From: Escherichia coli
GTDB lineage: Bacteria > Pseudomonadota > Gammaproteobacteria > Enterobacterales > Enterobacteriaceae
Assembly: GCF_002854065.1 (NCBI RefSeq)
Contig: NZ_CP024147.1
Reading direction: 5' to 3' (one strand)
Length of the DNA: 64,000 nucleotides
Made by a program: the position numbers and the translations under genes. Shown piece by piece: positions 2,714 through 53,628 of the stretch; positions within the stretch are counted from its first letter, which is position 1; the number at the start of each line of letters is the position of its first letter. The notes beneath the pieces were generated by a model. It was not told where the DNA came from. It was given only the letters and a program-made list of their open reading frames with translations, and ran no database searches.

Positions 2714-5650
<2,937 letters not shown>

Positions 5651-6520: not shown

Positions 6521-6532
6521 CTTTTATCCTTA

Positions 6533-7621: not shown

Positions 7622-7715
7622 TTTGAATTTCCGCTATGACTTATAACTTATGGCTTGATAATATGAATGTTTGTTAAGAACAATCTGAATATTAAAAAAG
7701 ACACTTATGATTAGA

Positions 7716-7727
7716 CACGCTACCGCC
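7716..7727 (-). promoter_or_regulatory. ops element (GGCGGTAGCGTG) within a JUMPstart sequence; RfaH-dependent antitermination signal for the O-antigen operon
   Basis: Plus strand reads CACGCTACCGCC, so the minus-strand transcript carries the exact 12-nt ops consensus about 95 bp upstream of the rmlB start. Confidence 0.75.
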
Positions 7728-8044
7728 CCTGGCTCTCCAGCTACCAGCGCACTGCACCTTCAATGATAAAAATCATTTATGTCAAGGTAAAAATCCGCAA
7801 CGACTCCCACCTGCAAACCCAAAAAATTTCGGCAACTATTTTCGTCTTAAATGCATTTGAACTCAAGGAAAAATCTTATAAACGATATGCAACGCCTACA
7901 TTTCTAACCTATTGTTATTTTTTACTTTGTTTTATGAAATAAAAAGGCAGTGAAGCTAGTAGTAGGTTACCCTACATACTTATGCCCATCTGCCGTTCTA
8001 AAACGCCGTTCTTAAATTTGCTTTATCGTTTACTGAGAAACGAC

Positions 8045-8935
8045 TTAAGATAACAACTTTTCAATACTTTTCCTGATCTTAGCCCCTTCCTTCAGGTTGC
8101 GCAACCCATACTGCACAAACGCCTGCATATACCCCATCTTCTTCCCGCAGTCGTAGCTCTCACCCGTCATCAGCATCGCGTCAACAGACTGCTTATTCGC
8201 CAGTTCGGCGATCGCATCCGTCAGTTGAATTCGGCCCCACGCCCCCGGCACGGTCTTCGCCAGTTCAGGCCAGATATCAGCGGAAAGTACATAGCGGCCT
8301 ACGGCCATCAGATCGGATTCCAGCGTCTGCGGCTGGTCAGGTTTTTCGATAAAATCAACGATACGGCTAACTTTACCTTCGACATCCAGCGGCTCTTTCG
8401 TTTTGATGACGGAGTATTCAGACAGGTCGCCCGGCATACGTTTCGCCAGCACCTGGCTACGCCCGGTTTCGTTGAAACGCGCCACCATGGCGGCAAGGTT
8501 GTAGCGCAGCGGGTCGGCGCTTGCGTTGTCCAGCACGATATCCGGCAACACAACCACAAACGGGTTATCGCCGACAATCGGATGTGCGCACAGGATAGAG
8601 TGTCCCAGGCCCAACGGCTGCGCCTGGCGAACGTTCATGATGGTCACGCCAGGAGGACAGATAGATTGAACTTCAGCCAGCAGCTGACGCTTCACGCGCT
8701 GCTCAAGCAGTGCTTCCAGTTCATACGAGGTATCGAAGTGGTTTTCCACCGAGTTTTTCGATGCGTGTGTGACCAGAACGATTTCTTTGATCCCTGCAGC
8801 AACCACTTCGTCGACGATGTACTGAATCATCGGCTTGTCAACGATCGGCAGCATCTCTTTAGGGATGGCCTTCGTGGCAGGTAGCATGTTCATACCCAAT
8901 CCCGCTACCGGAATGACTGCTTTCAAATTAACCAT
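8045..8935 (-). CDS. galF: UTP-glucose-1-phosphate uridylyltransferase regulatory paralog GalF
   Basis: [43 protein letters not shown] matches GalF; ORF track start at 8947 probably over-extended by 4 codons. Confidence 0.93.
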
Positions 8936-10476: not shown

Positions 10477-11700
10477 TTAGCAAAGCGTCTGCAGCAGGCT
10501 GGCAAGCTGCCGGTTAATCACCTGCTGATTAAAATCGGTTTCGACTTTCTCACGTGCGCGCGCCAGCACCGGCTGCAGGCTGTGCGCATCCATCCGGCCA
10601 AGTGATTGCAGTTTGTCTGCCAGCGCCGTGGCGTCGTACTCCTCCACCAGCCAGCCGGAATGACCGGAGTCAATCAGTTCCGGGATGCCGCTGTGGACCG
10701 TCGACAGCACCGGGATCCCCACCGCCATCGCCTCCATGAGCGCCACCGGAATACCTTCCATATCGCCATCGGCCCCCGTTACCGAGGGCAGCAGGAAGAC
10801 GTCAGCTTCATCAAGCAGCATTTTCACTTCATGGCTGGGCTTAAAACCCGGCATTTCTACGTGATCTTCCAGCTGATACTGTTCAATCAGGGTGCGCAGA
10901 CGGCGCTCCCACGGCCCGATGCCGAGGATGCGATAGCGAAAGTTGACGCCACGCTCTTTCAGCTGGCGGCAGGCTTCAATCGCCACATGCAGCCCCTTTT
11001 TCTCGGTCAGACGCGCAACGGAGAGTATCTGCAAGCAGCCATCGGGCGCTTTTAGCGGGCGCAGCGAGAAGCGGTCCATGTTTACGCCCATTCTTGATAC
11101 GGTAATTTTATCCGTCGGGCAGCCCATCGCCTGCAGCCGGTCTGCCCACAGTTGGCTGATGGGCAACATCATGTCGCCGCGGCGGAACAGCTGCTGATAT
11201 TCGCTGGTGTAGTGGTTCAACACTCCGCGGCTTGAGATATCAATACCGTGAAAGACGGTGGCTATCTTCCCGTCGATCACCCCCAGTTCGCGCAGCTTGG
11301 CGGCGGTCACTCCTGCCGGGCCAAAGTGGGCGATGTAAACATCGGCGACAATCGGCGCGGGAGTGCGGCTACAGATAGAAGAGAGGATCAGATTGCGCGC
11401 CTCCTGCCCGTAGCGCCGCGCGTTTAACGCCCGCCAGACGGCGGGACGGTGTAAACCGCGCAACGTGCTGAACGCGCGATAGCGTAGCTTCTCCAGCGCC
11501 GTTGACGGCTCATCCTGTAACCAGCGAACTTTGTCCGCCAGTTGATACTGGGTATAAGCCGCATGAGTATTGGTCAGGTCGCCCTTTTGTAGGGCGACAA
11601 TCTCCACCTCATAACCCATCTCGATGAACGCCACGATCTGGTTTAAGACAAACGTCTCAGACGATAAAGGAAATTTCAGCAGGAAGAAGCTGACTTTCAT
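10477..11700 (-). CDS. wcaL: Colanic acid glycosyltransferase WcaL (GT4 family)
   Basis: 407 aa; position and length match wcaL; 4 bp overlap with wcaK. Confidence 0.88.
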   Translation of the reverse strand: MKVSFFLLKFPLSSETFVLNQIVAFIEMGYEVEIVALQKGDLTNTHAAYTQYQLADKVRWLQDEPSTALEKLRYRAFSTLRGLHRPAVWRALNARRYGQEARNLILSSICSRTPAPIVADVYIAHFGPAGVTAAKLRELGVIDGKIATVFHGIDISSRGVLNHYTSEYQQLFRRGDMMLPISQLWADRLQAMGCPTDKITVSRMGVNMDRFSLRPLKAPDGCLQILSVARLTEKKGLHVAIEACRQLKERGVNFRYRILGIGPWERRLRTLIEQYQLEDHVEMPGFKPSHEVKMLLDEADVFLLPSVTGADGDMEGIPVALMEAMAVGIPVLSTVHSGIPELIDSGHSGWLVEEYDATALADKLQSLGRMDAHSLQPVLARAREKVETDFNQQVINRQLASLLQTLC

Positions 11701-14499: not shown

Positions 14500-15894
14500 T
14501 CAGTAGGCTGCTTTGTTGACAAAGCCTTTGAATACCGTCAGGAAGACGATCTTGATATCGAGCCACAGGCTCCACTCGCGGATGTATTCGAGATCGAACT
14601 CCACCCGTTTTTCCATCTTCTCGAGGGTATCGGTTTCACCGCGCCAGCCGTTGATCTGCGCCCAGCCGGTAATACCAGGCTTCACTTTGTGGCGCAGCAT
14701 GTAGCCTTCAATCAGTTGACGGTACTGTTCGTTGTGCGCCACCGCGTGCGGACGCGGGCCGACGATAGACATGCCGCCGGTGAGCACGTTGATAAACTGC
14801 GGCAATTCATCCAGCGAGGTGCGGCGCAGGAAGTTGCCGACACGGGTCACACGCGGGTCGTTTTGCGTCGCCTGTTTCACCACCTTGTCGTTCTCCATGA
14901 CCTTCATCGAGCGGAATTTCCACACTTTGATCGGCTTACCATCCATACCGTAGCGGGTCTGGCGGAAGATGATGGGGCCCGGCGAACTCAGCTTCACCGC
15001 CAGCGCGATACAGCACAGCGCAGGCGAAATCAGCAGCAGAATGCCCAGCGCCAACACGATATCCTCCAGCCGTTTGATAATACGATTCACCCCGGAGAGC
15101 GGCGTGTCGTACAGCGGCACCAGCGGAATACCGTTCACCACCTCTACGCGTGAATGCAGGATGTTGAAGGTGAAAACATCCGGGATCAGCAGCACCGAGC
15201 AGGTGGTGTCGGCGAGAGAACGGACCACCTCTTTAATCTGGCTCTCTTCCTGCATCGCCATCGAGATGTAGACGTTGTGGATTTTGCCGCTGCGGGCATC
15301 GTCGAGTAGTTGTTCAAGATTGCCCATCCAGTCGGCGTTAACGCCGCCTGGTTTAGCATCGTAATAGCTGCCGACCACTTCATAGCCCAGCCACGGCTGG
15401 TTGCGGAAGCTTTCGAGCAGCGCCTGCCCTTCCGGCATGTCCCCGGCGACGGCCACATAGCGGGTGTTATAGCCGCGATGGCGCAGCATGCCAGCGCCGT
15501 AGCGAATGAACGCGCGGCTCGCCAGCATGCCGATGGTGCTAATCAGATACCACGCCAGCCACATGGTAAAGTTGGTATTAAAATCATCGTTAAACGCCAG
15601 CAGTCCGGCGGCAAACACCAGGCTCAGCGTCCAGTTCTGCAACAGCAGCAGCAATTCGGTGGTGATACGCACGCCGCGCCAGGAGCGGTAGAAATCGGTA
15701 ATCCCGCCAATCATCTGGAAAACGACCAGCGTCACCAGCGCCATCAACAGATGGAGATATAAAAACGGCAACGCAACCGCCTGACACACCAGCCACAATC
15801 CCCCCAACATGATGGTGATGTCGGAAAAACGCTGCACCATGGAGATTAACGATGCATTCGTTTTAGCTCGTTCGCGCTTTTTTAGAGTCGTCAT
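14500..15894 (-). CDS. wcaJ: UDP-glucose:undecaprenyl-phosphate glucose-1-phosphate transferase WcaJ
   Basis: Probable start MTTLKKRERAKTNASLISMVQRF; C-terminal sugar-transferase domain; the ORF track's 43-aa N-terminal extension (MPLTLTLSPERRG...) is translation of the intergenic palindromic repeat. Confidence 0.9.
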   Translation of the reverse strand: MTTLKKRERAKTNASLISMVQRFSDITIMLGGLWLVCQAVALPFLYLHLLMALVTLVVFQMIGGITDFYRSWRGVRITTELLLLLQNWTLSLVFAAGLLAFNDDFNTNFTMWLAWYLISTIGMLASRAFIRYGAGMLRHRGYNTRYVAVAGDMPEGQALLESFRNQPWLGYEVVGSYYDAKPGGVNADWMGNLEQLLDDARSGKIHNVYISMAMQEESQIKEVVRSLADTTCSVLLIPDVFTFNILHSRVEVVNGIPLVPLYDTPLSGVNRIIKRLEDIVLALGILLLISPALCCIALAVKLSSPGPIIFRQTRYGMDGKPIKVWKFRSMKVMENDKVVKQATQNDPRVTRVGNFLRRTSLDELPQFINVLTGGMSIVGPRPHAVAHNEQYRQLIEGYMLRHKVKPGITGWAQINGWRGETDTLEKMEKRVEFDLEYIREWSLWLDIKIVFLTVFKGFVNKAAY

Positions 15895-15920
15895 CGTTGG
15901 TCCTATTCGTCGTTTCCCTT

Positions 15921-16020
15921 CACCCCGCCTCTCTCCCCAAAGGGGCGAGGGAGAAAAACCAATCCGCAGCCTGCACGTTCGGTTCCCTCTCCTCTCTGGG
16001 GAGAGGGTTAGGGTGAGGGG
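15921..16020. repeat. ~100 bp nested palindromic REP/MITE-like element, copy A, in the manB-wcaJ intergenic region
   Basis: Outer arms CACCCC...GGGTGAGGGG enclosing two GC-rich hairpins (CCTCTCTCCCCAAAGGGGCGAGGGAG and CCCTCTCCTCTCTGGGGAGAGGG); its reverse complement matches the copy at 27857-27945. Confidence 0.75.
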
Positions 16021-16026
16021 CAATAA

Positions 16027-17397
16027 TTACTGATTAAGCAACGCCAGAATGTCCTGCGTTCGCGCCTGCATCAGCGGCGTATTTCCGCGAGACTCCACGT
16101 TTAAGCGCACCACCGGTTCGGTATTGGAAGAACGCAGGTTGAAGCGCCAGTCGGCAAACGCCAGGCTGATGCCGTCAGTACGGTCGATCTCCAGCGCGCT
16201 GCCGGCAAAGTGTGCTTCCACGCGGGCAATCGCTTCTGACGGTGCCGCCAGATGACTGTTGATTTCACCGCTCGCCGGGAACGCCGCCATGCGGTCGCGC
16301 ACCAGTTCACCCAACGTTTTGCCCTTCAGGCACAGCAGTTCGCTGACCAGCAGCCAGGGGATCATGCCGCTGTCGCAGTAGGCAAAATCACGGAAGTAGT
16401 GGTGAGCGCTCATTTCACCGCCGTAAACCGCGTCGTCCTGACGCATGCGCTCTTTAATAAAGGCATGACCAGTTTTCGACATCACTGGCGTGCCGCCCGC
16501 CGCCGTGACGACGTCCACGGTGTTCCACGACAGACGCGGGTCGTGAATGATGCGCGCGCCGGGGTTCTTTTCGAGGAAGGCTTCCGCCAGCAGGCCGACG
16601 ATGTAGTAGCCCTCGATAAACTGCCCTTTCTCGTCGAACAGGAAGCAGCGGTCGAAGTCGCCATCAAAAGCGATACCCATATCGGCACCGTATTTGATGA
16701 CCGCATCGCGGGTATCCGCGCGGCACTCCGGCAGCAGCGGGTTAGGAATACCGTGCGGGAAGGTTCCGTCCGGGGTGTTGTGCACTTTGATCAGGTTCAC
16801 CGGCACATTCAGCGCTTTGAAGCGGGCTTCCAGCGCGTCAATCACCGGGCCTGCCGCGCCGTTACCGGAGTTCACCACCAACTTCAGCGGCGTCAGGTTT
16901 TGCACGTTGATGTAGCCCAGCAGGTGGTCGATATAGGCGTCACGCAGGTTGATTTTCTGGTAGCTACCGCGCGCGGCCTCATTGACCGGCGGGAAGTCGT
17001 TGGCTTCCGCCAGGCGCTGTACGTCGCGCAGGCCGGTATCGCCGCTGATGGGGCGTGCGCCTTCCCGCACCAGCTTCATGCCGTTGTAATCCATCGGGTT
17101 ATGGCTGGCGGTCACTTCGATACCGCCATCAACGCCGAGATGGAAGGTGGCGAAGTAAATCTCTTCGGTGCCGGAAAGCCCGATATCGAGCACGTCAACG
17201 CCCGCGTCGCGCAGGCCATTGGCTAACGCCAGTTTCAGCGCCTCGCTGGTCAAGCGCACATCGCCGCCCAGCACGATAATTTTCGGCTTCAGATATTCAC
17301 CGTAAGCGCGGCCAATGCGCCACGCGATGTCTTCATTCAGCTCTTCACCGAGCTTGCCGCGGATGTCGTAGGCTTTAAAACAGGTTAATTTCGTCAT
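16027..17397 (-). CDS. manB: Phosphomannomutase
   Basis: Probable start [14 protein letters not shown]; phosphohexomutase active-site region TASHNP; position between manC and wcaJ (cpsG in K-12 nomenclature). Confidence 0.92.
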
Positions 17398-17465
17398 GTT
17401 TTTACCTTTCTTCAGGCAACAGTTCGCCCTGACCGTTATGGCCATCAATTTTGGTGTCGTGATTT

Positions 17466-17490
17466 GCCGGATGCGCCGCGCTTATCCGGC
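17466..17490. repeat. REP-like palindrome in the manC-manB intergenic region
   Basis: GCCGGATGCGCCGCGCTTATCCGGC, the classical enterobacterial REP stem GCCGGAT...ATCCGGC. Confidence 0.6.
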
Positions 17491-17500
17491 CAGCCGGGCG

Positions 17501-18937
17501 CTACACGCGCCCGTAACGATCCTGGAAACGCACCACGTCGTCCTCTTCCAGATAGGCGCCAGATCGCACCTCAATCAGGTCGAGCGGGATTTTCCCCGGG
17601 TTTTCCAGGCAGTGGGTGACGCCAAGGGGGATATAGATAGATTCGTTCTCACCCAGCAGCGTAATTTGGTCATTGAGAGTGACTTTGGCGGTGCCCGCCA
17701 CCACGATCCAGTGTTCCGCCCGGTGGTGATGCATCTGCAGCGACAGCCCTTCCCCCGGCTTCACGGTGATGCGCTTAACCTGATAGCGATCGCCGGAATC
17801 AATCGAGTCATACTTGCCCCACGGGCGGTAGACTTCCCGGTGGATGTGGTGTTCGTGGCGGCCGTCGGCCTTAATCTTCTCGACCACCTTTTTCACGTCC
17901 TGCACCGCGTTGCGATCGGCGATAAGCACCGCGTCTTTGGTTTGCACCACCACCAGGTCCTTTACCCCGACGGTCGTCACCAGGCCAGACTCTGCATAGA
18001 CATAGCTGTTTTCGGTTTTATGGCTGATGACATCGCCATGGTGCACGTTGCCTTCCGGCGTATGGTTGCTTATCTCCCACAGCGATGACCAGGAGCCGAC
18101 ATCGCTCCAGCCCGCGTCCATCGGCACCACTACCGCATCCGCGGTCTGCTCCATCACCGCATAATCGATGGATTCGTCCGGGCAGCTCAGGAACGCCGCT
18201 TCATCGACGCGGATAAAGTCGAGATCCGGGTCGGTGACGTCCATCGCTTTTTCGCAGGCGCGAAGAATATCCGGGCGATATTTGCCCAGCTCTTCCAGAT
18301 AGCGCCCGGCGCGGAACAGGAACATGCCGCTGTTCCAGTAATATTCACCGCTGGCGACATAGGCCTGTGCGGTATCGAGATTGGGTTTTTCGACAAACTG
18401 CGCGACGTCGAAGGCCAGCGTGTCGTCGGTACCCGGCGTGACATCACCACGGCGAATATAGCCGTAGCCGGTTTCCGGCACGTTCGGCACGATACCGAAG
18501 GTCACCAGCTTGCCATTTTCAGCATACGGCGTGGCATGACGAACCGCCGCGCGGAAGGCCTCTTCGTCCTGAATCACATGGTCCGCCGCCAGCACCAGCA
18601 TCAGCGGGTCGCAGTCCGGTTCGCGACGCTTAGCCGCCAGCGCCGCCAGGGCGATGGCTGGCGCCGTGTTGCGCCCTGCCGGTTCCAGAATAATGTTTTC
18701 GGTCAGCTTGTTGAGTTGACGCAGCTGTTCCGCCACGATAAAGCGGTGTTGCTCATTGCAGATCACCACCGGGCTGGCGCACTTCACGCCGTCCAGCCGG
18801 TTCACCGTGGCCTGCAGCATGGTCATGTCCCCTTTCAGGCACAGGAACTGTTTGGGGTACAGCACTCTGGACAGCGGCCACAGTCGGCTACCCGAGCCAC
18901 CGGCCATCACGACCGGGAAAAGCGTAGTTTGACTCAT
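17501..18937 (-). CDS. manC: Mannose-1-phosphate guanylyltransferase
   Basis: 478 aa; N-terminal [14 protein letters not shown] nucleotidyltransferase motif and C-terminal cupin domain (cpsB in K-12 nomenclature). Confidence 0.93.
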
Positions 18938-18940
18938 CGT

Positions 18941-20164
18941 TTAACCCCGAATATCAGCAATAAATTGGTTGAGAACGTGTTCTTTATCGAGCGAACGTTC
19001 GGCCCAGGCGCGGGCGACCGCATTTCGCTTCGGCATCTTCAGCGCCTGCTCAATCCCTTCCACCAGCGACGGAACCGATTCAGGCGTCACGCACACCGCA
19101 ATGCCCGGATTGTCCAGACATAGCTGGCCCAGCTCGGTCTGCAGTTCAGCGGTAATCACCGCGTTGCCGCCCACCGCCAGAATATTGGTCAGCTTGGAAG
19201 GCAACACCGCATCCGCGGCGCCACGCTTCTGAATCACCAGATGGCAGTCGCCAATCGCCAGCAGCGCGGGTAAATCTTCGTACGACTGCAGCGGCAGGAA
19301 CTTGACGTTATCCAGCCCGCGTTCGGCGACCATTTTTTCCAGCCGCGCTTTACCGCCGCCCTGACCGACAATGGCAAACAGCCACGGCTGTTCACGTAGC
19401 TGTTCGGCGGCAGTAATCACGCTCTCCAGCCCCTGTTTCTCACCGATATTGCCGGAGTAGAGAATAATTTTGCGTTCATCCGGCAGGCCAAGACGCTGAC
19501 GCAGCGCCATCACCAGCGTTTCCGGCACCTCGCGAAAACGGGAAACTTCCGACCAGTTGGGGAAGAAAATCACCTTCTCCGGCGCAACGCCCTTCTCGCA
19601 GGCTTTGTTCATCATTGAGCGCGAGATGGTCGATACGTTGTCAACGTTGTGCAGCCCGCTACGCTCAAAGGCGCTGGCAAGTTTTGCCACCTTGCCGGCG
19701 CGACCGTTGCCTGCCATGCCCAACCCCAGCATGGCGTCGACTTCATAATCCTGAATATGCAGCAGCGTCCGCGCGCCGGAGAGCTTCGCCAGCAGGCGCA
19801 TACCGGGGGTGCAGAACAGCGTCGGCACTACGCCGATAATGCGATCCGGCTTCCAGCGGCGTTGGGCCATCAGCGGGAAGAAACTGCTGAGCGCAAAGCT
19901 GCCGAGATGGATCAAACGCTTCAGCGTCGACAGCTGCTTTGGCACATACAGCGGGCAGCGCCAGACGGTGGCATCGCCGTTTTCCCGGCGGTAACGCCAG
20001 CTTGAGTATTTCGCGCCAACCTGCCATTCCGGATAGTACGGCGGCGCGGTAATCACTCGCACCTCGTGACCCTGCTGCACCATCCACTCGACCATTTCGC
20101 CGGTGTATTTGCCGATGCCGGTGAGTTCAGGCGAATAGTTGATGCCATACACCAGAATCTTCAT
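18941..20164 (-). CDS. wcaI: Colanic acid glycosyltransferase WcaI
   Basis: 407 aa GT4-type protein; position between gmm and manC. Confidence 0.88.
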
Positions 20165-20640
20165 AGGCCCTGCACCTCGGCCAATTTGTCGACCCGGAAA
20201 TAGGCGCGGCTGTTTTCATGAACGTTGTCCGACGCCAGTAACGCAGGCGGTGTCAGCCAACGGTACTCATTATGCTGATCGTCCGGCAGCGTTAAGGTCC
20301 CGGCGTCCACCTGCAGGCGGAAACCAAGCACAATGTAATGGGTCGAAAAATCCGTACCGCAGAAATTCTCGTCATAGAAATGCTGCCAGACTCCGTAAAA
20401 GCGGCCTGCCGTCATCGGCAGGCTCAGCCCCAGTTCGGCCTCGGTCAGGCGGGCAAACGCCTGTTCCAGCGTTTCATCTTTCTGTACCCGCCCGCCCGGC
20501 ACAAACCAGTACCCCTGCGCCGGACGATTGTTGCGCTTACCCAGCAAAAACTCGCCCTGCGCGTTCTCGACGATCAAATCGATGGAGATCAGCGGCGTAG
20601 ACTGCACCACGGTGGCAAACGCTTCCTGGCTCAGAAACAT
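20161..20640 (-). CDS. gmm: GDP-mannose mannosyl hydrolase (NUDIX)
   Basis: 159 aa; position directly downstream of fcl (wcaH). Confidence 0.88.
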
Positions 20641-20643
20641 GCG

Positions 20644-21609
20644 TTACCCCCGGAAGCGGTGCTGGCTTTCCAGAAACCACTGGTAAGTGCTGGCAAGACC
20701 AGCCTCCAGCGAGATTTCGTGGTACCAGCCCAGTTGATGCAGGCGAGAAACATCGAGCAGCTTGCGCGGCGTGCCGTCGGGTTTGGTGGCATCAAACACC
20801 ACCCGCCCTTTAAAGCCCACCACTTTCACCATCGTCTGCGCCAGTTCACGAATGGTGCAGTCAACGCCGGTGCCAACGTTAATATGCGACAGCATAGGCT
20901 GCGTGTTTTCGAGCCAGACGCCGCGATCCAGCTCCATCACATGGATACTGGCAGCCGCCATATCGTCCACATGCAGGAACTCGCGCATCGGCGTGCCGCT
21001 CCCCCACACCACCACGTCCGCGGCGTTTTGCTGTACCGCTTCATGGAAGCGGCGCATCAGCGCCGGAATAACGTGCGAATTGCTCGGGTGGAAGTTATCG
21101 TTCGGCCCGTACAGGTTGGTCGGCATCACCGAGCGATAGTCGCGATTATGCTGGCGGTTGTAGGACTCGCACAGCTTGATACCGGCAATTTTCGCAATCG
21201 CGTACGGTTCGTTAGTCGCTTCCAGCGTGCCCTGCAGCAGCTCGCTTTCGTGCATTGGCTGGTTAGCCATTTTCGGATAGATGCACGATGAACCGAGAAA
21301 CAGCAGCTTATTCACGTTGTGCGTATGCGCCGCGTGAATAATGTTGCTTTCAATCATCATGTTCTCGTAGATGAAATCCGCCGGGAAGGTGTTGTTGGCC
21401 ACAATGCCGCCCACCTTTGCCGCCGCCAGATACACCTGATCAATATTTTCAGCGGCGAAGAAGTCGTTCACTTCGCGGCTATCCAGCAGGTTGAGCTCAT
21501 CGCGGCCGCGAACCACCAGATCCACGTCGCCGCGTTGTGCAAGCTGTCGGACGATGGCCGAGCCCACCATTCCCCGGTGGCCCGCCACAAAAATACGTTG
21601 TCTGGTCAT
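20644..21609 (-). CDS. fcl: GDP-L-fucose synthase (GDP-4-keto-6-deoxymannose 3,5-epimerase/4-reductase)
   Basis: 321 aa; N-terminal [18 protein letters not shown]ossmann motif; immediately downstream of gmd. Confidence 0.93.
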
Positions 21610-21611
21610 AC

Positions 21612-22733
21612 TTAAGACTCCAGCGCGATCGCCACTTCATAACCGTGGGATTTCAGCAGGGAATGTTTCTTCGCTGCTTCCAGGTCTTTGGCGACCATTT
21701 CAGATACCATCTCCTGCAGGGTGGTTTCCGGTTTCCAGCCGAGTTTTTCATGCGCTTTGGTCGGGTCGCCGAGCAGGGTTTCAACTTCTGCCGGACGGAA
21801 GTAGCGCGGATCCACGGCCACCATCACATCGCCCGGTTTCACGCCCGGCGCATCGTGACCGGTGACGGAAACGACAATCCCTTTTTCTTCCACGCCTTTA
21901 CCTTCAAAGCGCAGTTTAATACCCAGCTGTGCCGCCGCCATTTCGACGAACTGGCGAACCGAATACTGCACGCCGGTGGCGATAACGAAATCTTCCGGAT
22001 GGTCCTGTTGCAGCATCATCCACTGCATTTTCACGTAGTCTTTGGCGTGGCCCCAGTCGCGCAGAGAATCCATGTTGCCGAGGTACAGGCACTTCTCCAG
22101 GCCCTGAGCGATGTTAGCGATCGCACGGGTGATTTTACGCGTCACAAAGGTTTCGCCGCGGCGCGGAGACTCGTGGTTGAACAGGATGCCGTTACAGGCG
22201 TACATGTCGTAAGATTCACGGTAGTTGACGGTGATCCAGTAGGCATACAGTTTGGCGACCGCATACGGCGAGCGCGGATAGAACGGAGTGGTCTCTTTTT
22301 GTGGAATTTCCTGCACCAGGCCGTACAGTTCCGAAGTGGAAGCCTGATAGAAACGCGTTTTCTTCTCCAGCCCTAGGAAGCGGATGGCTTCCAGCAGACG
22401 CAGCGTGCCCATCGCATCCACGTCGGCGGTATATTCCGGCGACTCAAACGACACGGCAACGTGGCTCATTGCGCCGAGGTTATACACTTCATCCGGCTGC
22501 ACTTCCTGCAGAATGCGCGTCAGGTTGGAGCTGTCGGTCAAATCACCGTAGTGCAGGTGAAATTTCGGGTTGCTGCTGTGCGGATCCTGATAGATGTGAT
22601 CGACACGTTCGGTGTTAAAGGAAGAAGCACGGCGTTTAATCCCGTGAACTTCATAGCCTTTTTCCAGCAGCAGTTCTGCCAGATAAGAACCGTCCTGCCC
22701 CGTTACGCCGGTAATAAGTGCGACTTTTGACAT
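21612..22733 (-). CDS. gmd: GDP-mannose 4,6-dehydratase
   Basis: 373 aa; [20 protein letters not shown]-terminus characteristic of Gmd. Confidence 0.95.
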
Positions 22734-22757
22734 TCTATTTTCCTCAAATTGTCCCGT

Positions 22758-23312
22758 TTAGGGAGTCACTTTCTCTACGCGCTCACGCGTAACCACTGCG
22801 GGATTGCCACGGCAAATCATATTTGCCGGTAGCGATTTAAAAACGCTGCTGCGGGCACCGACGATTGTGCCCTCGCCAATCGTGACGCCGGGGGCAACAA
22901 AAACATCTGTCGCCAGCCAGCATTTCTCACCAACCACAATCGGCGCAGCGTTAATATCGAAATGCGCGCTCTGATAATCGTGGCTGCCGGTGCACAAATA
23001 GCATTTCTGCGAAACCACCGAATTTGCCCCAAGGGTTATTTCACCCAAGGTATATAACACTGCCTCATCGCCCACCCAGGCATAATCTCCAATGGTTAAT
23101 TTCCATGGGTAAGTGATTTTTACCGACGGGCGAATGACTACGTTTTTTCCTATTTTTGCGCCAAACAGACGTAATAAAAATGCGCGCCAGCGATACAATA
23201 TCTGTGGAGACCAGGCAAATAATGTGGCCTGAACCGCCCACCATATTTGTACTTTTATGCCCCCGGCGCCGCGAAAACCTTTTGGTACCGAAAAGCCCGA
23301 TAATTCCTGCAT
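22758..23312 (-). CDS. wcaF: Colanic acid acetyltransferase WcaF (hexapeptide-repeat)
   Basis: 184 aa with left-handed beta-helix hexapeptide repeats; position between wcaE and gmd. Confidence 0.85.
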   Translation of the reverse strand: MQELSGFSVPKGFRGAGGIKVQIWWAVQATLFAWSPQILYRWRAFLLRLFGAKIGKNVVIRPSVKITYPWKLTIGDYAWVGDEAVLYTLGEITLGANSVVSQKCYLCTGSHDYQSAHFDINAAPIVVGEKCWLATDVFVAPGVTIGEGTIVGARSSVFKSLPANMICRGNPAVVTRERVEKVTP

Positions 23313-23321
23313 TTGGTATCC

Positions 23322-24068
23322 TTATGCTTTGTGATATAAGGCTTTTGCTTTCCCCGTTGTGCGCAGACGTAATAAATAAGATAATTCTGCAAGCAGGCCC
23401 GGCATACGTAATATTTCACGCTGCACTTTTTTTGCATCCTGGCACAACTGTAGATTATTTGTGGTGGACACGCCGCCCATCGAAAATTCCGACACCAAGC
23501 CTTTAATACGTTTAAAGGCATATCCCGACTTATACATCCGCGCCGCCAGCGCATAATCAGAAGAGACACGATACTGCACATCATAAGGATGATTTTTCAG
23601 CCCACGCAGCGGGAAGAAAATAGCCTGATGGCTAGCCGGTAGGCTGTGATAAATATACCAACCCTGCTTAGCGCTACGGCGAATCTGGGTGCCGTCGCCA
23701 AAGTCCAGCATCGCATCGCCAAGGTACATGGCATCATCGCTTTTACCGCGCAGCTGACGGACGAACTGCGACACATCCGGATGAAAGCTGTCGCCGGAAT
23801 TCAGAAACAGCACAAACTTGCCCTGCGCCATGCGGATGCCTTTGTTCATCGCATCGTAAAGCCCTTTATCCGGTTCGCTGACGTAGCGTAAGTGGTACTG
23901 GCCGTTACGTTTTTCGAGGAACTCTGCGGTGCCATCGTTAGAACCGCCATCCACCACAATCCACTCGAAAGTGAGGCTGGGATCGTTTGCCAGATGGGCC
24001 AGAGAACGCCAGGTTTTCACCACGCCATCAACGTTACGAAACGCGACGGTAACCACGCTTAACAACAT
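23322..24068 (-). CDS. wcaE: Colanic acid glycosyltransferase WcaE (GT2)
   Basis: 248 aa; N-terminal GT2 motif VVTVAFRN...VVDGGS. Confidence 0.85.
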
Positions 24069-24076
24069 GCTTCACC

Positions 24077-25300
24077 TCATCTGCTGTCAGCAATATTCAG
24101 CGCTTTACGCAGAATAAAAGGACAAACAATTAAAAATGCATATTCCGGACTAAATATCGAACCGGTAAAAAATAATGATATCGGCGTGAAAAGATACAGC
24201 TGCACGGCGAAATTACGATTATTCCCAAAAGCGTTAATGAACATTTTAAATACGTAGTACAGATACCCAGCCGTTAATATCACAGCGAACCACGAAAAAT
24301 AAATCATTAACAGATACAGACCATTGTCTATGGTTTTACCGACATCCGCACCGTTAAATATTCCGAATGATGCAACATATTCGTAAAGAGAACCAAAACG
24401 CACGACCCCATCAATGCTGGTTAATGAATAACCGACCATCACCAATGGACCAATTATACGGTAATACGATGACGATCCTTCCGTTCCTAAATCACCAATA
24501 CGCTCGGCAATATAGGGGAATGCAAACACCAGACCGATAAAAAATGCGCCTAATGAGATAATCGCCAACGGTAACTTTTTCTTGATCGCTTCTTTGTTCA
24601 GGTACTGGAAAGCCCACTCCAGCAGATAGAACAGGATAAATGTCATAACCCCAGAAAACGATCCAGAAAGAATTATCCCTGCCAGAATCATAGCATCAGA
24701 CTTCGGGGTTTTGATACCAAACTGTTTGATGCAAAGCCAAATTGAGATTAATGCCAGAGCAAAAAATGCCGGTTCGAAATATAACGCAGTGGTGCGCTTT
24801 CCACCGAATTTGATAAAATTCAGCACATAGCTATTACTGTAAATAAGATATTTCGAAATCGTCGCTATCAAACTGCTGCCGCCGGTGAGAATAATCTGCG
24901 CCATCTCCAGCGCCGCCAGCGCCACCACCAGGGTAATCACCACATAGAAAAAACGCAGGATCTTACGGTGGTTATGCGGTGAAATGGTTTTGAAGCGAAT
25001 GCTCCAGACCATGCCGATAATGATCACGATATAGACAAACAGCATCGTCGAGGTGACATATTTGCTGGGGTCCAGCGATTGTCCAAACAGATAGTTGAAC
25101 AACGTCAATCCTACGCCCAGTCCGAGGGCAATCATCAGTTTTTTCAGATTAATGCGTTCAACAAACAACAGCAGCAACAGCGGAAGGAACGTCACAATGG
25201 TAATGGGGAAGCTCTCCCCCAGCTGCGCCAGCTTCACGTTAACCAACAGGTAGATTAACGGCAGCAGCAGATAGCTACAGACTCTGATAGAACGAGACAT
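24077..25300 (-). CDS. wcaD: Colanic acid polymerase WcaD (Wzy-type)
   Basis: Probable start MSRSIRVCSYLLLPLIYLLVNV; polytopic membrane protein; ORF track start at 25507 is an over-extension into wcaC. Confidence 0.88.
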   Translation of the reverse strand: MSRSIRVCSYLLLPLIYLLVNVKLAQLGESFPITIVTFLPLLLLLFVERINLKKLMIALGLGVGLTLFNYLFGQSLDPSKYVTSTMLFVYIVIIIGMVWSIRFKTISPHNHRKILRFFYVVITLVVALAALEMAQIILTGGSSLIATISKYLIYSNSYVLNFIKFGGKRTTALYFEPAFFALALISIWLCIKQFGIKTPKSDAMILAGIILSGSFSGVMTFILFYLLEWAFQYLNKEAIKKKLPLAIISLGAFFIGLVFAFPYIAERIGDLGTEGSSSYYRIIGPLVMVGYSLTSIDGVVRFGSLYEYVASFGIFNGADVGKTIDNGLYLLMIYFSWFAVILTAGYLYYVFKMFINAFGNNRNFAVQLYLFTPISLFFTGSIFSPEYAFLIVCPFILRKALNIADSR

Positions 25301-26492
25301 ATTCCTCCAGCATCTGTTGTCCGCTGTAAGCTTTGCGGCTACGCGCGCTAAAGTTCTCCAGCGTGGTGCCAAAAATCTGCTCGGCGATCTCCGCTTTCGG
25401 TTGCTGTACCAGGGTGAGCACCTCGGCCTCATCCACCGTATGGCCGCCGGATTTTGCCAGCACCTCTTTTGCCGCCTCGCTATGGGTAGCAATGACCGGC
25501 ACGCCAATCGATAACGCTTCGCACAGAATCAGCGGGTAATTATCTACCCGCGAGCTGAACAGCAGAGCGTCCAACGGGTTCAGTTCGCTCATCAGTTGGC
25601 GTTTATCGGTCAGAAAACCGTGGTTCACCACGTTGCTGCCCTCAAACGGCGAGAACTTACCAAAGGTATGGACCTCGACCTTATCGCCCAGCGCGATAAT
25701 ATCGCGCACCAGCTGCTGGTTGGTTTTGCCGTCATAGCGCAGGTCGTGAGCCACCACGGCGATTTTAGGCCGCGAGGAGAAGCGTTTTACCGGCGTCAGC
25801 TCGGCAAGAATCGCTTCGGTGGCGACGTCGATCCCGTTATTGATAATCTGGCAGCGCCCTGCGCCGTAGAGGCTGTTAAAGGCCTCGGCAACATGCTGAC
25901 TGGGTGAAATAAAACGGCAGCCCAGCGCCAGCATCTGGCGGAAAAGTTGACGTTTTTCATCGACCAGCGCATGTGCGCGATCGACCTTCACCGGCGGGTA
26001 GTTACTCAACGTTGGGCACTTCTGACAGCCGCTTTTCCAGCCTTCGCAGCCGTCAAGAAAGGCACAGCGCCCGGTCACGCTCCAGTGATCGTGCAGCGTC
26101 CAGATAAAAGTCGCATCGCTTTTATGCGCCTTCACCCGCTCGCAGAAGTTCACCACATCCGCCAGATTCAGCCAGTAGCTGTGCATGACGTGAAAATGCA
26201 GTACCACCGGGCCGTCAGTACGGGTGACCTGGCGATACAGGTTATTGAGGTTGCCAAACACATCGCGGTTAAACAGGCGGAACAGCGCCAGGTTCGCCAT
26301 TGAGGTTAACCGTCCGGTCTGCTTCACCACCTGCGGATAACGGTCATGGCTGACGCTCTTCTTACCGCCTTTGCCATAGCCGTAGACAAATTTTGACGAC
26401 AGCCCCTGACGGAGTGCGCGCTGATGCAGATCCAGCGCCACGCCCGCCGCGCCGCCTTCGGCCAGACGGACGTTAAATTGCAGAATATTCAT
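25275..26492 (-). CDS. wcaC: Colanic acid glycosyltransferase WcaC (GT4)
   Basis: 405 aa; position between wcaB and wcaD. Confidence 0.88.
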   Translation of the reverse strand: MNILQFNVRLAEGGAAGVALDLHQRALRQGLSSKFVYGYGKGGKKSVSHDRYPQVVKQTGRLTSMANLALFRLFNRDVFGNLNNLYRQVTRTDGPVVLHFHVMHSYWLNLADVVNFCERVKAHKSDATFIWTLHDHWSVTGRCAFLDGCEGWKSGCQKCPTLSNYPPVKVDRAHALVDEKRQLFRQMLALGCRFISPSQHVAEAFNSLYGAGRCQIINNGIDVATEAILAELTPVKRFSSRPKIAVVAHDLRYDGKTNQQLVRDIIALGDKVEVHTFGKFSPFEGSNVVNHGFLTDKRQLMSELNPLDALLFSSRVDNYPLILCEALSIGVPVIATHSEAAKEVLAKSGGHTVDEAEVLTLVQQPKAEIAEQIFGTTLENFSARSRKAYSGQQMLEEYVSFYQSL

Positions 26493-26983
26493 TTGATTAC
26501 CTTCACTCGCGCTTTTTCGCCCACCACCAGCGCATGGTCCGGAACGTCGTCCAGCACCACGCTGCCCGCGCCAATGGTCACGTGGTTACCGATGGTAATA
26601 CCGCCGATAATCATCACGTTGGCCCCCAGCTCAACGCCATCACCAATCCTTGGGCACGCCAGACTCTCCGGGCCGCGATTGCCGATAGTGATGCCGTGAC
26701 GAATCGTGAAATCGTCTCCCGCCACCACGTTTTTATTGATCACCACGGCATAACCGTGGTGGATGGTGAAACGTCGGCCAATGGTCGCCGCCGCCTGGAT
26801 TTCATAGCCGAAGAAACATTCGGTGATAATGCGGTACAGCACCAGCACCGGCGCCGCCCACAGGTTGTTCAGCACATTTTTCTTGCGCCACACCGAGCAA
26901 AAATGAGCCACACGGTAGGCGATCACCATGCAGCAAGGGCGCAGGCTCCAGCTGTTGGCATGTAAATCTTCCAGTAGCATCAT
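26489..26983 (-). CDS. wcaB: Colanic acid acetyltransferase WcaB (serine acetyltransferase-like hexapeptide protein)
   Basis: 164 aa with hexapeptide repeats; 4 bp overlaps with both neighbours. Confidence 0.88.
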   Translation of the reverse strand: MMLLEDLHANSWSLRPCCMVIAYRVAHFCSVWRKKNVLNNLWAAPVLVLYRIITECFFGYEIQAAATIGRRFTIHHGYAVVINKNVVAGDDFTIRHGITIGNRGPESLACPRIGDGVELGANVMIIGGITIGNHVTIGAGSVVLDDVPDHALVVGEKARVKVIK

Positions 26984-27822
26984 TTACTCCGCAGTCCGTC
27001 GACCCAGCGTTTGCCGTTGCGCACCGACAGCAGCGTCAGAAACGTCTTCCAGGTCATGCGCTTATTACGAATTTGATAGAGCGTGAACAGCTGATACTTC
27101 TTACTCGCCCGATCAAACTTCTCTTTGTGCTTGCGGTAGAAGCTGAAGTAGCCGGAAAACTTTTTGGGTGACGAGGTGATCTGCATTTCACCGTGGTTGA
27201 TGTGCAGAATCTGCGTAGCGGCTTCAATCTTCCACGGCTCGCCGTAGGCCACCACCATGCGCAGGAAAATATCGTAGTCCTGCGCCGCCTTCAGTTCGGT
27301 ATCAAACAGGCTTTCTTTAAAACGCCAAGCCCAGCTAAACACCTGATTGCCAATGATGTTGCGCTTATAGAACAACTGACGGGAGAACGGCGATTTCGGG
27401 TACAACGGCAGGCTGGCAGGCTGCGAGTACACCTCCCCTTCGCAGACGTAGTCATCGGCGTACAAAAAGGCGTGATCCATCAATTGCTGTTTATGTTCGA
27501 GAAACAGCGAAAGGCGGTTGGATGTCCACTCATCGTCATCATCAATACCGGTGATAAACTGCCCTTTGGCCTGCAGAATGGCCTGATTGCGTACCGCGCA
27601 TGCTCCGGAGTTAAAATCGTTGCGCGTGTACTGTACGCGGCGATCGTTGAGTTCGATGACAAACTGCTGAAGCTGCTCATAGCTGCTGGAGCAGTCATCG
27701 ACGATAATCATTTCCCAGTGAGGATAGTCCTGACGCAGTACCGATTTGATGGCGCGAATGGCCAGCTGCTGTCGGTTCCAGGTCGGCATATAAATGGAGA
27801 TCAACGGGTTGTCTGTTGTCAT
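26980..27822 (-). CDS. wcaA: Colanic acid glycosyltransferase WcaA (GT2)
   Basis: Probable start MTTDNPLISIYMPTWNRQ; GT2 motifs; ORF track start at 27864 is probably over-extended. Confidence 0.88.
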   Translation of the reverse strand: MTTDNPLISIYMPTWNRQQLAIRAIKSVLRQDYPHWEMIIVDDCSSSYEQLQQFVIELNDRRVQYTRNDFNSGACAVRNQAILQAKGQFITGIDDDDEWTSNRLSLFLEHKQQLMDHAFLYADDYVCEGEVYSQPASLPLYPKSPFSRQLFYKRNIIGNQVFSWAWRFKESLFDTELKAAQDYDIFLRMVVAYGEPWKIEAATQILHINHGEMQITSSPKKFSGYFSFYRKHKEKFDRASKKYQLFTLYQIRNKRMTWKTFLTLLSVRNGKRWVDGLRSK

Positions 27823-27856
27823 GGTATATCCCCGAATAAGCGTTTGAGCGGTTGTT

Positions 27857-27945
27857 CCCCTCACCCTAACCCTCTCCCCAGAGGGGAGAGGGGACCGTTC
27901 GGTTTTCTCCCTCGCCCCTTTGGGGAGAGGGCCGGGGTGAGGGGG
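27857..27945. repeat. ~90 bp nested palindromic REP/MITE-like element, copy B, in the wzc-wcaA intergenic region
   Basis: CCCCTCACCCTAACCCTCTCCCCAGAGGGGAGAGGGG...CTCCCTCGCCCCTTTGGGGAGAGGGCCGGGGTGAGGGG; inverted relative to copy A and lacking about 20 bp of copy A's central spacer. Confidence 0.75.
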
Positions 27946-27951
27946 ATGTTA

Positions 27952-30114
27952 TTATTTCGAATCCGACTGATACTCGTACTCGTAGTACCCGTAATCCTGG
28001 TATCCCGTCGCGCGGCGGAAGATCGAGTTGAGGATAACCCCTTTCACCGCAATGCCATTCTGCTCAAAGCGGCTCAGGCTGGTTTCTACTTCCTTCAGGG
28101 TGTTAACCGCATAGCGCGTGACCATCAAGGTGGTGCCCGCGTGGCGACCAACGATAGCGGCATCGGTAACCGCGAGAATCGGCGGCGTATCGATCAGCAC
28201 CAGGTCATAGTTCGCTGAACCCCACTTCAGCAGCTCGCTAAAGCGCTCGGCCATCAACAGCTCCGACGGATTTGGCGGGATCTGCCCGCGCGGGATCAGG
28301 TCAAAGTTGGCAACCGACGTCCGTTTCGCGCTGCTTTCAAACGCCGCTTTCCCCACCAGCACCTCGGACAGGCCGTTATCATTGGTGGTGCCGAGCAGTT
28401 CGTGGGAATAGCCTTTACGCATATCGCAGTCGATCATCAGTACGCGCTTATGGGTCTGGCTGATCACCGCCGCCAGGTTGGCGCAGACGAAGGTTTTACC
28501 GATAGACGGGCTGACCCCGGTCATCATCAGCACGTTGTTCGGCGCCTGCATCATGGCGAAGTGCAGGCTGGTGCGCAGGCTGCGAATGGCTTCGATCGCC
28601 AGGTCGGTCGGGTTACCCACCGCCAGTAGCTGGCTCTGCTTATAGCGCTTCACACCGTTGACGCTCTTCACGCTATCGCGCGATTTTTGCCACTCGGAGA
28701 GCGGAATGCTGGCATAAACATTGATGCCATGCTCTTCGAGCACCTGTGGGCTTTCGATACCGCGGTTAAACAGCGAGCGCAGCAGCACGCCGACGATCGA
28801 CAACATCAGGCCGAGAATAATGCTGCCCAGCACGATCAACGCTTTCTTCGGCTTCACCACCCCCGGCTGAGTAATTGCCGGGTCGACAATCCGCACATCG
28901 CCGACGGTACTCGCCCGGGTGATTTTCAGCTCCTGCTGTTTATTCAGCAGTTGCATATAAACCTGTTGACCAGACTCCACGTCACGGGTCAGGCGTACAA
29001 TCTCCTGCTGGGTTTTCGGCATCGCCGTCACGCGTTTGCTCAGCTTGGCCTTCTCTTCTTCCAGCGCCCGGCGTTTTTCCAGCAACGTGCGATAGGCCGG
29101 GTGGATGCGGGTATACAGCTTGGAGATTTCCGCTTCGCGGAACGTCAGCTCGTTCAGCTGCGCGTCGATGTTCACCATCGAATCGAGCACCGATTTCGCT
29201 TCCAGCGGCAGGTCTACGGAGTCTTGCTGCTGACGGTAGGTATTCAGTTTGTTTTCCGCCACGTCCAACTGGCTGCGCACCTGTGGCAGCTGCACTTCGA
29301 GGAACTCGAGGCTTTTCGCGGCTTCTTCCGATTTGCGCGCCACGTTCTGCGCCACGTAGTTGTTGGCGATACTGTTGAGGATGTCGCGGATCTGATCTTT
29401 GTCTTCACCCACCATCGTGAGCGTCAGCACACCGGACTCTTTACCATCCTCGGTGACGCTCAGGCTATTTTGCAGGTTATTGATCATCCCCAATGTTGAA
29501 TATTTGGTGACGGTAAAACTCGCGCCATCGTGGGCGGCGATCCCGGTAACCAGCAGCGAAACGCCGCCTTTATTCAGCGTCTCCCCGACCTTCCCTTCTG
29601 CGCTAAAACCGTCGTCGTTGCTCAGGCGATAGCGCGTTGGGTTGATAACCTCCAGCGTAAAGGTGCTGTCGGCCATCGAGGCCGGGCGATTAAAGGCGCT
29701 GACCTTCACCGTCTCATTCTGGCGGCCCATCAGCCGTTCCCAGCCCGCCCCCAGAATCGGAAAGGTGTTTTTGCTCACGGCAATATCCAGCCCCAGATCC
29801 TCAACGGTTTTCCCGAGCACCATACGCGAGGTGATCATCTGGATTTCCGCCTCGGAGGCCGGCGGCTTGCTGGTGAGCGCGTTGCTGATATCCTGCACCA
29901 GCGCGCTGCCCTGATTTTGCTCAATGCGCACCAGTGCGTCGGCGCTGTAAATCGGCGTGGCGAACAGCGCGTAGACAATCGCCAGCGCGGCAAACAGGGC
30001 GGTAATGCCGATGACCCACCATTTGGCTTCCACCACGGTGCCCACAAGGCGACCAATGTCGATCTCATCGTTGCCCGAGACCGATGGGCTTATCTGTTTT
30101 ACTTTATCTGTCAT
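27952..30114 (-). CDS. wzc: Tyrosine-protein kinase Wzc (polysaccharide co-polymerase / BY-kinase)
   Basis: Probable start MTDKVKQISPSV; C-terminal Walker A GVSPSIGKT and tyrosine-rich tail YQDYGYYEYEYQSDSK. Confidence 0.95.
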   Translation of the reverse strand: MTDKVKQISPSVSGNDEIDIGRLVGTVVEAKWWVIGITALFAALAIVYALFATPIYSADALVRIEQNQGSALVQDISNALTSKPPASEAEIQMITSRMVLGKTVEDLGLDIAVSKNTFPILGAGWERLMGRQNETVKVSAFNRPASMADSTFTLEVINPTRYRLSNDDGFSAEGKVGETLNKGGVSLLVTGIAAHDGASFTVTKYSTLGMINNLQNSLSVTEDGKESGVLTLTMVGEDKDQIRDILNSIANNYVAQNVARKSEEAAKSLEFLEVQLPQVRSQLDVAENKLNTYRQQQDSVDLPLEAKSVLDSMVNIDAQLNELTFREAEISKLYTRIHPAYRTLLEKRRALEEEKAKLSKRVTAMPKTQQEIVRLTRDVESGQQVYMQLLNKQQELKITRASTVGDVRIVDPAITQPGVVKPKKALIVLGSIILGLMLSIVGVLLRSLFNRGIESPQVLEEHGINVYASIPLSEWQKSRDSVKSVNGVKRYKQSQLLAVGNPTDLAIEAIRSLRTSLHFAMMQAPNNVLMMTGVSPSIGKTFVCANLAAVISQTHKRVLMIDCDMRKGYSHELLGTTNDNGLSEVLVGKAAFESSAKRTSVANFDLIPRGQIPPNPSELLMAERFSELLKWGSANYDLVLIDTPPILAVTDAAIVGRHAGTTLMVTRYAVNTLKEVETSLSRFEQNGIAVKGVILNSIFRRATGYQDYGYYEYEYQSDSK

Positions 30115-31885: not shown

Positions 31886-31897
31886 CATGCTACTGCC
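31886..31897 (-). promoter_or_regulatory. ops-like motif (GGCAGTAGCATG, 10 of 12 matches to ops) in the wza leader; possible JUMPstart
   Basis: Plus strand CATGCTACTGCC; sits about 190 bp upstream of the wza start codon. Two mismatches to the consensus, so function is uncertain. Confidence 0.3.
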
Positions 31898-31968
31898 CTT
31901 GGCTTTCAGCTACCAATTCACCTAAAAATCATGTTGTTATAGGAAACCCACCCATTCATAAAAAGAAT

Positions 31969-49800: not shown

Positions 49801-49903
49801 GAGCCAGCTCCTGACGCTGTATACCACGCCGGTGATGTATCTCTTTTTCGACCGTCTGCGGCTGCGTTTTTCGCGTAAACCTAAACAAACGGTAACCGAG
49901 TAA
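46826..49903 (+). CDS. mdtC: Multidrug efflux RND transporter permease MdtC
   Basis: 1025 aa RND pump immediately following mdtB. Confidence 0.95.
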
Positions 49904-53438: not shown

Positions 53439-53628
53439 TTTTAGCGACATTATTTTGTTAGCCGGAGATGGCGTTCAGACCCGATCCGGCAACATTATCC
53501 CACGCATGGTCAGCAAACTGACATTATCTCTCCGCCCTGGCAGGCATCAGAAAATCGCTCATACTTTAATCGGTAAACAGCACCTTTAGATGCTGTTTTC
53601 GATACACAATTTCAATCAAGGAGTCATT

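Follow-up and report, generated by a model that had tools for sequence, protein, structure and literature searches.

What are the two large palindromes that lie within the colanic acid (wca) operon in a 64-kb stretch of Escherichia coli DNA (the window; coordinates are window positions unless a fetched locus is named), and do they act on the operon? One of them, copy A, occupies the spacer between cpsG (manB) and wcaJ, and the other, copy B, the spacer between wzc and wcaA. An earlier reading of the letters alone (the sequence-only reading) had described them as two inverted copies of a nested palindrome, had found their family identity not obvious, and had proposed that they could invert or delete the genes between them. 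The analysis presented here indicates that the two elements are very probably BoxC dimers which were imported together with the gene cluster, which each form one hairpin of about 40 bp in the mRNA, and which do not constitute an inversion switch.

Family identity of the two palindromes

The two elements are indeed inverted copies of each other. A repeat search paired them through inverted arms of 47 nt (89% identity) and 41 nt (95%), and each copy is in addition an internal palindrome. In a global alignment of copy A with the reverse complement of copy B, 82 of 88 columns (93%) are identical, whereas identity in the direct orientation is only 84.5%. The extra central spacer ascribed to copy A is present, although it is a 17-nt insertion rather than one of about 20 nt. 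The longest exact run common to the two copies in the inverted orientation is 27 nt, and there are two runs of about that length. With up to one mismatch allowed, the window contains 11 occurrences of the decamer GGGGAGAGGG, compared with an expected 2.1; nine of them are inside the two copies.

BoxC elements, first noticed next to fabI/envM (Bergler 1992, as cited in PMC4666352), are the PIT elements of Hoyne and Maher (Hoyne and Maher 2000), and were renamed TMECO by Holder et al. 2015 (PMC4666352). According to the latter authors, the consensus is CCCTCNCCC-N3-6-GGGNGAGGG-N3-GGGNGAGGG, with TTA as the second loop in subtype A and CCG in subtype B, and strain MG1655 has 23 copies, five sites being inverted A+B pairs (PMC4666352). 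A search of the window with this consensus as a regular expression (35 nt, up to 3 mismatches) returned exactly four monomers, with 0, 0, 1 and 2 mismatches, all of them within copies A and B (Table 1), and no match in 30 dinucleotide shuffles of the window. On the plus strand, copy A consists of a degenerate type B monomer in minus orientation (second loop GCG), a centre of 33 nt and a type A monomer in plus orientation; copy B consists of a type A monomer (minus), a centre of 16 nt and a type B monomer (plus), both perfect. Each copy therefore pairs one type A and one type B monomer on opposite strands, as palindromic TMECO sites do. Positions 27909-27944 (a monomer and the following G) are letter-identical to TMECO no. 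3 of K-12 (Table 1 of Holder et al. 2015, PMC4666352), and the fabI(envM)-ycjD spacer of K-12 holds a near-identical half-element.

A genome-wide search for further copies, as proposed by the sequence-only reading, was positive: copy B has matches in 5425 of 5426 complete E. coli genomes, at a median of 20 places per genome, almost all of them chromosomal and unannotated, and at 15-27 places in five genomes that have this exact locus. Some 20 matches per genome make the element a member of a dispersed repeat family. BoxC itself is GC-rich and abundant in Enterobacter and related genera. The likeness to BoxC/PIT/TMECO extends to the monomer consensus of 35-36 nt, the TTA and CCG loops, the inverted A+B dimers with a short centre, the strictly intergenic position, the number of dispersed copies per E. 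coli genome and the identity to a K-12 copy. No structural difference was seen; copy A departs only in its longer centre and in its partly decayed type B monomer. Copies A and B are, then, almost certainly canonical palindromic A+B BoxC dimers. Neither of two observations that would speak against this identity, a lack of further copies in the genome or a better-fitting catalogued family, was made. The element is an already known, catalogued repeat, and the published consensus together with the identity to K-12 no. 3 answers the question of its family.

Comparison with known repeat families, also proposed by the sequence-only reading, led us to reject REP, ERIC, RU-3 and MITE, while BoxC fits. 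REP/BIME elements (Higgins 1982; Stern 1984; Newbury 1987) resemble the two copies in being short, GC-rich, dispersed intercistronic palindromes that are transcribed within operons, and in typical E. coli REP fills the same wzc-wcaA spacer as copy B does here. The sequences of BoxC and REP are, however, unrelated, and the stem of the dimer measures about 40 bp against about 12-15 bp in REP; the REP core GCC(G/T)GATGCG(G/A)CG(C/T) is matched in neither copy, even when 2 mismatches are allowed. The published sequence of RU-3 (103 nt, E. coli and Shigella; Delihas 2007) is a REP pair (gccggatgcggcg...) and is unrelated to copies A and B. MITEs (ERIC/RU-1, YPAL/RU-2, Correia) are likewise small, have terminal inverted arms, form a long stem-loop when transcribed and are dispersed between genes. 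Copies A and B do possess inverted outer arms, but their flanks (tcgttt / caataa; ttgtt / gatgt) show no target-site duplication, and ERIC (IRU, RU-1) gave no match at up to 5 mismatches to the ERIC1R/ERIC2 primer cores, which is a weak test. To our knowledge BoxC has no parent transposon and no link to a REP-associated transposase (RAYT). At gathering thresholds, a search of the whole window against Rfam found no match at copy A or copy B, and at permissive thresholds copy A, the only one so searched, gave sub-threshold, generic hairpin matches to microRNA models.

Operon context and origin of the locus

The placement of the two elements in short gaps of a single operon, between manB and wcaJ and between wzc and wcaA, is borne out by the RefSeq annotation of identical genomes, which confirms the gene names on both sides of each copy, and by a JUMPstart/ops element upstream of wza (Table 1). 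The latter marks the predicted start of a single long transcription unit of the RfaH type that would read through both copies. The copies are strictly intergenic, lying between annotated stop and start codons. Mechanical calls of open reading frames (ORFs) run through the BoxC dimers, giving wcaJ as 14500-16023 (TTG at 16023) and wcaA as 26980-27864 (GTG at 27864). These over-long calls show how such repeats inflate gene calls.

Table 1. Positions of the BoxC elements, their neighbouring genes and the operon leader element in the 64-kb window
Feature	Position	Strand	Remarks
Copy A, BoxC/TMECO palindromic dimer	15916-16020		cpsG(manB)-wcaJ spacer
BoxC monomer in copy A, type B-like, degenerate	15917..15951	-	CCCTCGCCCCTTTGGGGAGAGAGGCGGGGTGAAGG; 2 mismatches to published consensus
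BoxC monomer in copy A, type A (second loop TTA)	15985..16019	+	CCCTCTCCTCTCTGGGGAGAGGGTTAGGGTGAGGG; 1 mismatch
Copy B, BoxC/TMECO palindromic dimer	27857-27944		wzc-wcaA spacer
BoxC monomer in copy B, type A	27858..27892	-	0 mismatches
BoxC monomer in copy B, type B (second loop CCG)	27909..27943	+	0 mismatches
wcaJ	14500..15894	-	downstream of copy A; ATG 21 nt past hairpin; AGGA Shine-Dalgarno free
cpsG (manB)	16027..17397	-	upstream of copy A; stop codon 6 nt ahead of element
wcaA	26980..27822	-	downstream of copy B; ATG 34 nt past hairpin
wzc	27952..30114	-	upstream of copy B; stop codon 7 nt ahead of element
JUMPstart/ops element	31886..31923	-	upstream of wza; RF01707, 41.4 bits

Two further features of the region were noted. 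A second JUMPstart/ops element, at 7716-7754 on the minus strand, presumably heads the O-antigen cluster. The cpsB-cpsG spacer, just upstream of cpsG/manB, contains a match to the algC RNA motif (RF02929, 55.8 bits) at 17402-17451 on the minus strand, adjoined by a REP-like core at 17466-17479 on the plus strand, so that a third spacer of the operon also has structured elements.

The exact spacers of the window occur in only 5 of the 5426 complete E. coli genomes. In a BLAST comparison with K-12, identity is 67-80% from position 1 to about 42,050 and 96-99% thereafter. The divergent part comprises the O-antigen genes, galF, the whole wca operon, yegH, asmA, dcd, udk, dgcE, alkA and yegD; the switch in identity, at 42,050/42,097, adjoins a Sib RNA gene (RF00113, 42066-42212), and the yegI-yegJ-pphC-yegL-sibA genes of K-12 are absent from the window at this boundary. 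The wca cluster is 85.3% identical to that of Kluyvera genomosp. 1, 81.1% to that of Pseudocitrobacter and 79.6% to that of Enterobacter cloacae, and no donor was matched among the sampled species representatives. At least 42 kb, including the whole wca cluster, thus looks like a Kluyvera-like import into an E. coli backbone, that is, a replacement of O-antigen and colanic acid genes between genera. Given the low identity to K-12 and the higher identity to Kluyvera, the dimers would have arrived with this segment and not by recent insertion into an E. coli operon.

Beyond the boundary, the mdtABCD-baeSR block (42,097-53,995) is 95.8% identical to K-12, compared with 97.8-99.4% in the blocks that follow (IS5 aside), and may represent a second, older recombination tract or a divergent phylogroup. 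An IS5-like element at 62,298-63,502, in the gat region, is 96% identical to IS5I of K-12.

The two spacers across genera and the question of rearrangement

We compared the two spacers in 21 usable enterobacterial wca loci (20-kb loci), which were fetched with WcaE. One to three REPs lie in the wzc-wcaA spacer of typical E. coli, and it has been stated that 'all strains conserved a REP' (Iguchi et al., PMC3158064). The cpsG-wcaJ spacer of E. coli has two forms. In 554 genomes (about 10%), for example FDN-9 (element at 111-245 of the fetched locus), one type B monomer is perfect and the far outer arm is preserved, the rest being scrambled. In the majority, K-12 included (spacer 6556-6609 of the fetched locus), only the two outer arms are left, fused into a mini-hairpin, CCCCTTACCC-gcagtg-GGGTAAGGG, of 10 bp, with a compensated change of a C:G to a T:A pair. 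Judged by their sequence, these forms show successive stages in the decay of a BoxC dimer in native E. coli, in agreement with the remark that palindromic TMECO sites tend to lose their inner parts while the hairpin is retained (Holder et al., PMC4666352).

Among the other genera, perfect A+B dimers stand at both spacers in Pseudocitrobacter, Enterobacter cloacae and Enterobacter asburiae. In Kluyvera, Superficieibacter, RIT691, Pluralibacter, other Enterobacter, Siccibacter, Phytobacter and Ag1, at least one of the two spacers holds a dimer, an array or a remnant. REP-like palindromes follow wzc in Citrobacter and Cedecea, and the remaining taxa have short GC hairpins with BoxC-like arms after cpsG. 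Of 23 cpsG-wcaJ spacer sequences (22 taxa), about 20 contain a clear GC-rich hairpin; a hairpin also follows wzc in most taxa, but in four the spacer there is short and has none. Nearly all BoxC matches in the fetched loci lie in spacers of the operon. Taken together, these comparisons suggest conserved sites for intercistronic hairpins after wzc and after cpsG. For the sequence-only reading, a common, catalogued repeat that lacks positional bias would have counted against its interpretation; the repeat is common and catalogued, but a lack of positional bias does not simply hold, the two spacers carrying BoxC or other hairpins across many genera.

Some loci carry more than the usual complement of BoxC. 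The wzc-wcaA spacer of Superficieibacter electus (5898-6247 of the fetched locus) is 350 nt long and consists of a tandem array of three units, which measure about 95 nt and contain one BoxC-core hairpin each; BoxC outer arms cap the array (minimum free energy -204 kcal/mol), which is an expanded form of the BoxC element. Perfect BoxC monomers were also seen in the wcaF-gmd spacer of Superficieibacter (11304-11336), RIT691 (11351-11384) and Pluralibacter (11351-11385), and further ones in the cpsB-cpsG spacer of Superficieibacter (16962-17061; all positions in the fetched loci).

The cpsG-wcaJ elements of the window and of Kluyvera align end to end and are therefore orthologous. At the wzc-wcaA spacer (window 27823-27951, Kluyvera 6121-6246 of the fetched locus), the flanks align but the dimer is flipped: that of the window reads B..A and is perfect, whereas that of Kluyvera reads A..B and is decayed. 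This arrangement suggests flipping in place, gene conversion or re-insertion of the palindrome.

Such turnover could mean that the elements matter mainly as DNA: a purine-strand intrastrand triplex or a cruciform might make the two spacers locally unstable, without any function in RNA. Oligonucleotides of types A and B, representing the purine strand of TMECO as single-stranded DNA, form an intrastrand triplex in vitro, as shown by circular dichroism and nuclear magnetic resonance, and the variability of TMECO loci exceeds that of control intergenic sites (PMC4666352). The two spacers studied here are highly variable too, the cpsG-wcaJ element being full length in the lineage of the window, half scrambled in the FDN-9 type and reduced to its outer arms in the K-12 type, and the wzc-wcaA element being flipped between conserved flanks; predicted energies of the single-stranded DNA hairpins are -28 to -37 kcal/mol. 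Footprinting with dimethyl sulphate in vivo, however, gave no evidence of a stable triplex, and duplex DNA gave no triplex signal (PMC4666352). Non-B DNA would, moreover, explain turnover but not the continued occupancy of the same two spacers across genera, and we regard it as quite unlikely to account for the main effect of the elements.

The proposal of an on/off switch for colanic acid, in which the inverted dimers would bring about inversion of the 12-kb wcaA-to-cpsG segment between them (or, together with other copies, its deletion), fares worse. Its premises hold: at the spacing described, the inverted copies show 93% identity and share two exact runs of about 27 nt. Holder et al. also link TMECO loci to local genomic variability and discuss recombination between distant copies (PMC4666352). 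The comparison of strains gave no inversion: all five complete genomes with both copies, a small sample, are collinear, with full-length matches across both junctions. The offset between query starts at the two copies is exactly 12,000 bp in four of them; in SY3626 the interval is 1,977 bp longer, owing to insertions of IS1 and ISKpn26. No recombinase gene was found between the copies or next to them; only wca genes, and in one strain the IS elements, lie between them. In E. coli, 27 nt is at the lower limit for RecA-dependent recombination (the concept of the minimal efficient processing segment), and exact homology between the copies does not exceed this length. Most other genera that have a dimer at each site carry the pair as direct repeats; in Pseudocitrobacter, Enterobacter cloacae and Enterobacter asburiae both read A..B. 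The mutual inversion seen in the window is therefore a chance feature of this lineage. Changes at TMECO loci, besides, are mostly small local deletions and not large rearrangements (Holder et al., PMC4666352). We conclude that a role as an inversion switch, or in deletion of the wcaA-to-manB segment, is unsupported, nothing in this small set of five genomes speaking for it, and that it is very improbable indeed.

In SY3626, IS1 lies between wcaD and wcaE (4143-4840 of the fetched locus) and ISKpn26 interrupts gmd (6276-8597), by which colanic acid synthesis is probably inactivated in this strain.

Proposed role in the operon mRNA

RNA folding in the mRNA sense predicts one long hairpin of about 40 bp for each copy, with -64.8 kcal/mol (z = -6.3) for copy A and -74.8 kcal/mol (z = -8.9) for copy B, consistent with the expectation of very stable RNA structures in the polycistronic transcript. 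The nested fold that had been described, with outer arms around two hairpins, is a valid alternative, but it is 13-19 kcal/mol less stable than the single long hairpin, and is probably a co-transcriptional intermediate. Purine-motif triplexes do not form in RNA, according to the review of the field within Holder et al. (PMC4666352), so that only the hairpin is relevant in the transcript.

No terminator-like site was found at either element on either strand, the tails GGGAAACGACGAAU and GGGGAACAACCGCU lacking a U-tract, and neither element has promoter-like sites. As far as signals in the DNA can tell, co-transcription within the operon is shown by this lack of promoter and terminator signals and by the JUMPstart element upstream. 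Both dimers would accordingly be part of the wza-to-wcaM mRNA, each folded into its single hairpin. The Shine-Dalgarno sequence of wcaJ lies outside the stem of copy A, and that of wcaA outside the stem of the copy B dimer; when the whole wzc-wcaA spacer is folded, GGGGAU of wcaA pairs with AUCCCC just upstream of the dimer. The hairpins are thus predicted neither to act as intrinsic terminators nor to mask the downstream Shine-Dalgarno sequences.

REP elements are established barriers to 3'-to-5' mRNA decay (Newbury 1987), and this role is the best functional analogy for the BoxC dimers. By that analogy, each hairpin may block 3'-to-5' decay and/or serve as a weak attenuator or as a processing site, and the two would separate wza-wzb-wzc and wcaA-to-cpsG from the genes that follow. 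A stem of about 40 bp is also a plausible substrate of RNase III, although this is inference only. A stem-loop after wzc has been described as an attenuator (PMC2516531, citing Bailey 1997), and so has the wzc-wbaP stem-loop of Klebsiella, with about -8 kcal/mol in Kp13 (PMC3438125). Copy B has the same position as these post-wzc attenuators of group 1 capsule and colanic acid clusters, ahead of glycosyltransferase genes in an operon with RfaH/JUMPstart, and likewise a stable stem-loop. The known ones, however, are small (Klebsiella Kp13) or REP (K-12), whereas here an 88-nt BoxC dimer of -75 kcal/mol without a U-tract is found, and attenuation by it is a proposal.

A stronger form of this idea holds that the stem-loops after wzc and cpsG are 'punctuation' conserved across the Enterobacteriaceae and selected as a decay barrier, a Rho-dependent or partial attenuator or an RNase III site, and that the part is played by whichever palindrome a lineage has: a BoxC dimer, REP, or a decayed or minimal hairpin. 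The operon would then fall into three blocks, for export (wza-wzb-wzc), for sugar nucleotides and transferases (wcaA-cpsG), and for initiation, flippase and late functions (wcaJ-wcaM), whose stability or read-through relative to each other the stem-loops would set. It would account for the finding that unrelated palindromes occupy the same spacers, namely BoxC in the window and at least ten genera, one to three REPs in E. coli, REP-like elements in Citrobacter and Cedecea, and GC hairpins of 10-14 bp in the remaining lineages. The frequency of hairpins in the cpsG-wcaJ spacer, the retention in K-12 of the outer arms only, with a compensated base pair, the attenuator literature cited above and the predicted stems of about 40 bp of near-perfect double-stranded RNA also favour it. 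The argument is partly circular, since the spacers are long because they contain the element, and few other spacers of the operon are available as controls. We consider selected punctuation possible, although unlikely.

Several points weigh against any strong role in RNA. PIT elements acted neither as promoters nor, in reporter tests, as terminators, and they left RNA polymerase unaffected (Hoyne and Maher 2002, as summarized in PMC4666352), and the TMECO copies of K-12 show no bias towards operons or regulation (Holder et al., PMC4666352); both results argue against it. The four taxa with a short, hairpin-less wzc-wcaA spacer indicate that a hairpin is not obligatory there, and the shared occupancy across genera could be a matter of inheritance and slow decay, not of selection. 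It is equally possible that the dimers are tolerated passengers with little effect. Most likely, we are dealing with a known repeat that is largely a passenger and possibly has a modest effect on mRNA stability, and a selected RNA-level role of any kind seems to us somewhat doubtful.

In the searchable literature we found no link of BoxC/TMECO to colanic acid or capsule operons, and the supplementary tables of Holder et al. (63 TMECO loci) contain no wca gene names. The recurrence of the sites across genera and the substitution of REP for BoxC may thus be unreported, but inheritance with slow decay can explain both. The result is in itself an ordinary one, in that it names a repeat and removes a suggested invertible segment of 12 kb. 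It has value for annotation, as BoxC dimers are absent from Rfam and from RefSeq feature tables and are therefore liable to repeated 'rediscovery'. The more useful by-product is that the same two gaps hold a strong palindrome, drawn from different repeat families, in nearly every genus examined. With recurrent palindromes at two defined sites, the function of BoxC and REP within an operon becomes directly testable in a well-studied one, and should the punctuation of the transcript prove true, it would provide a concrete function in RNA, at defined sites, for BoxC, to which none has been assigned in 30 years.

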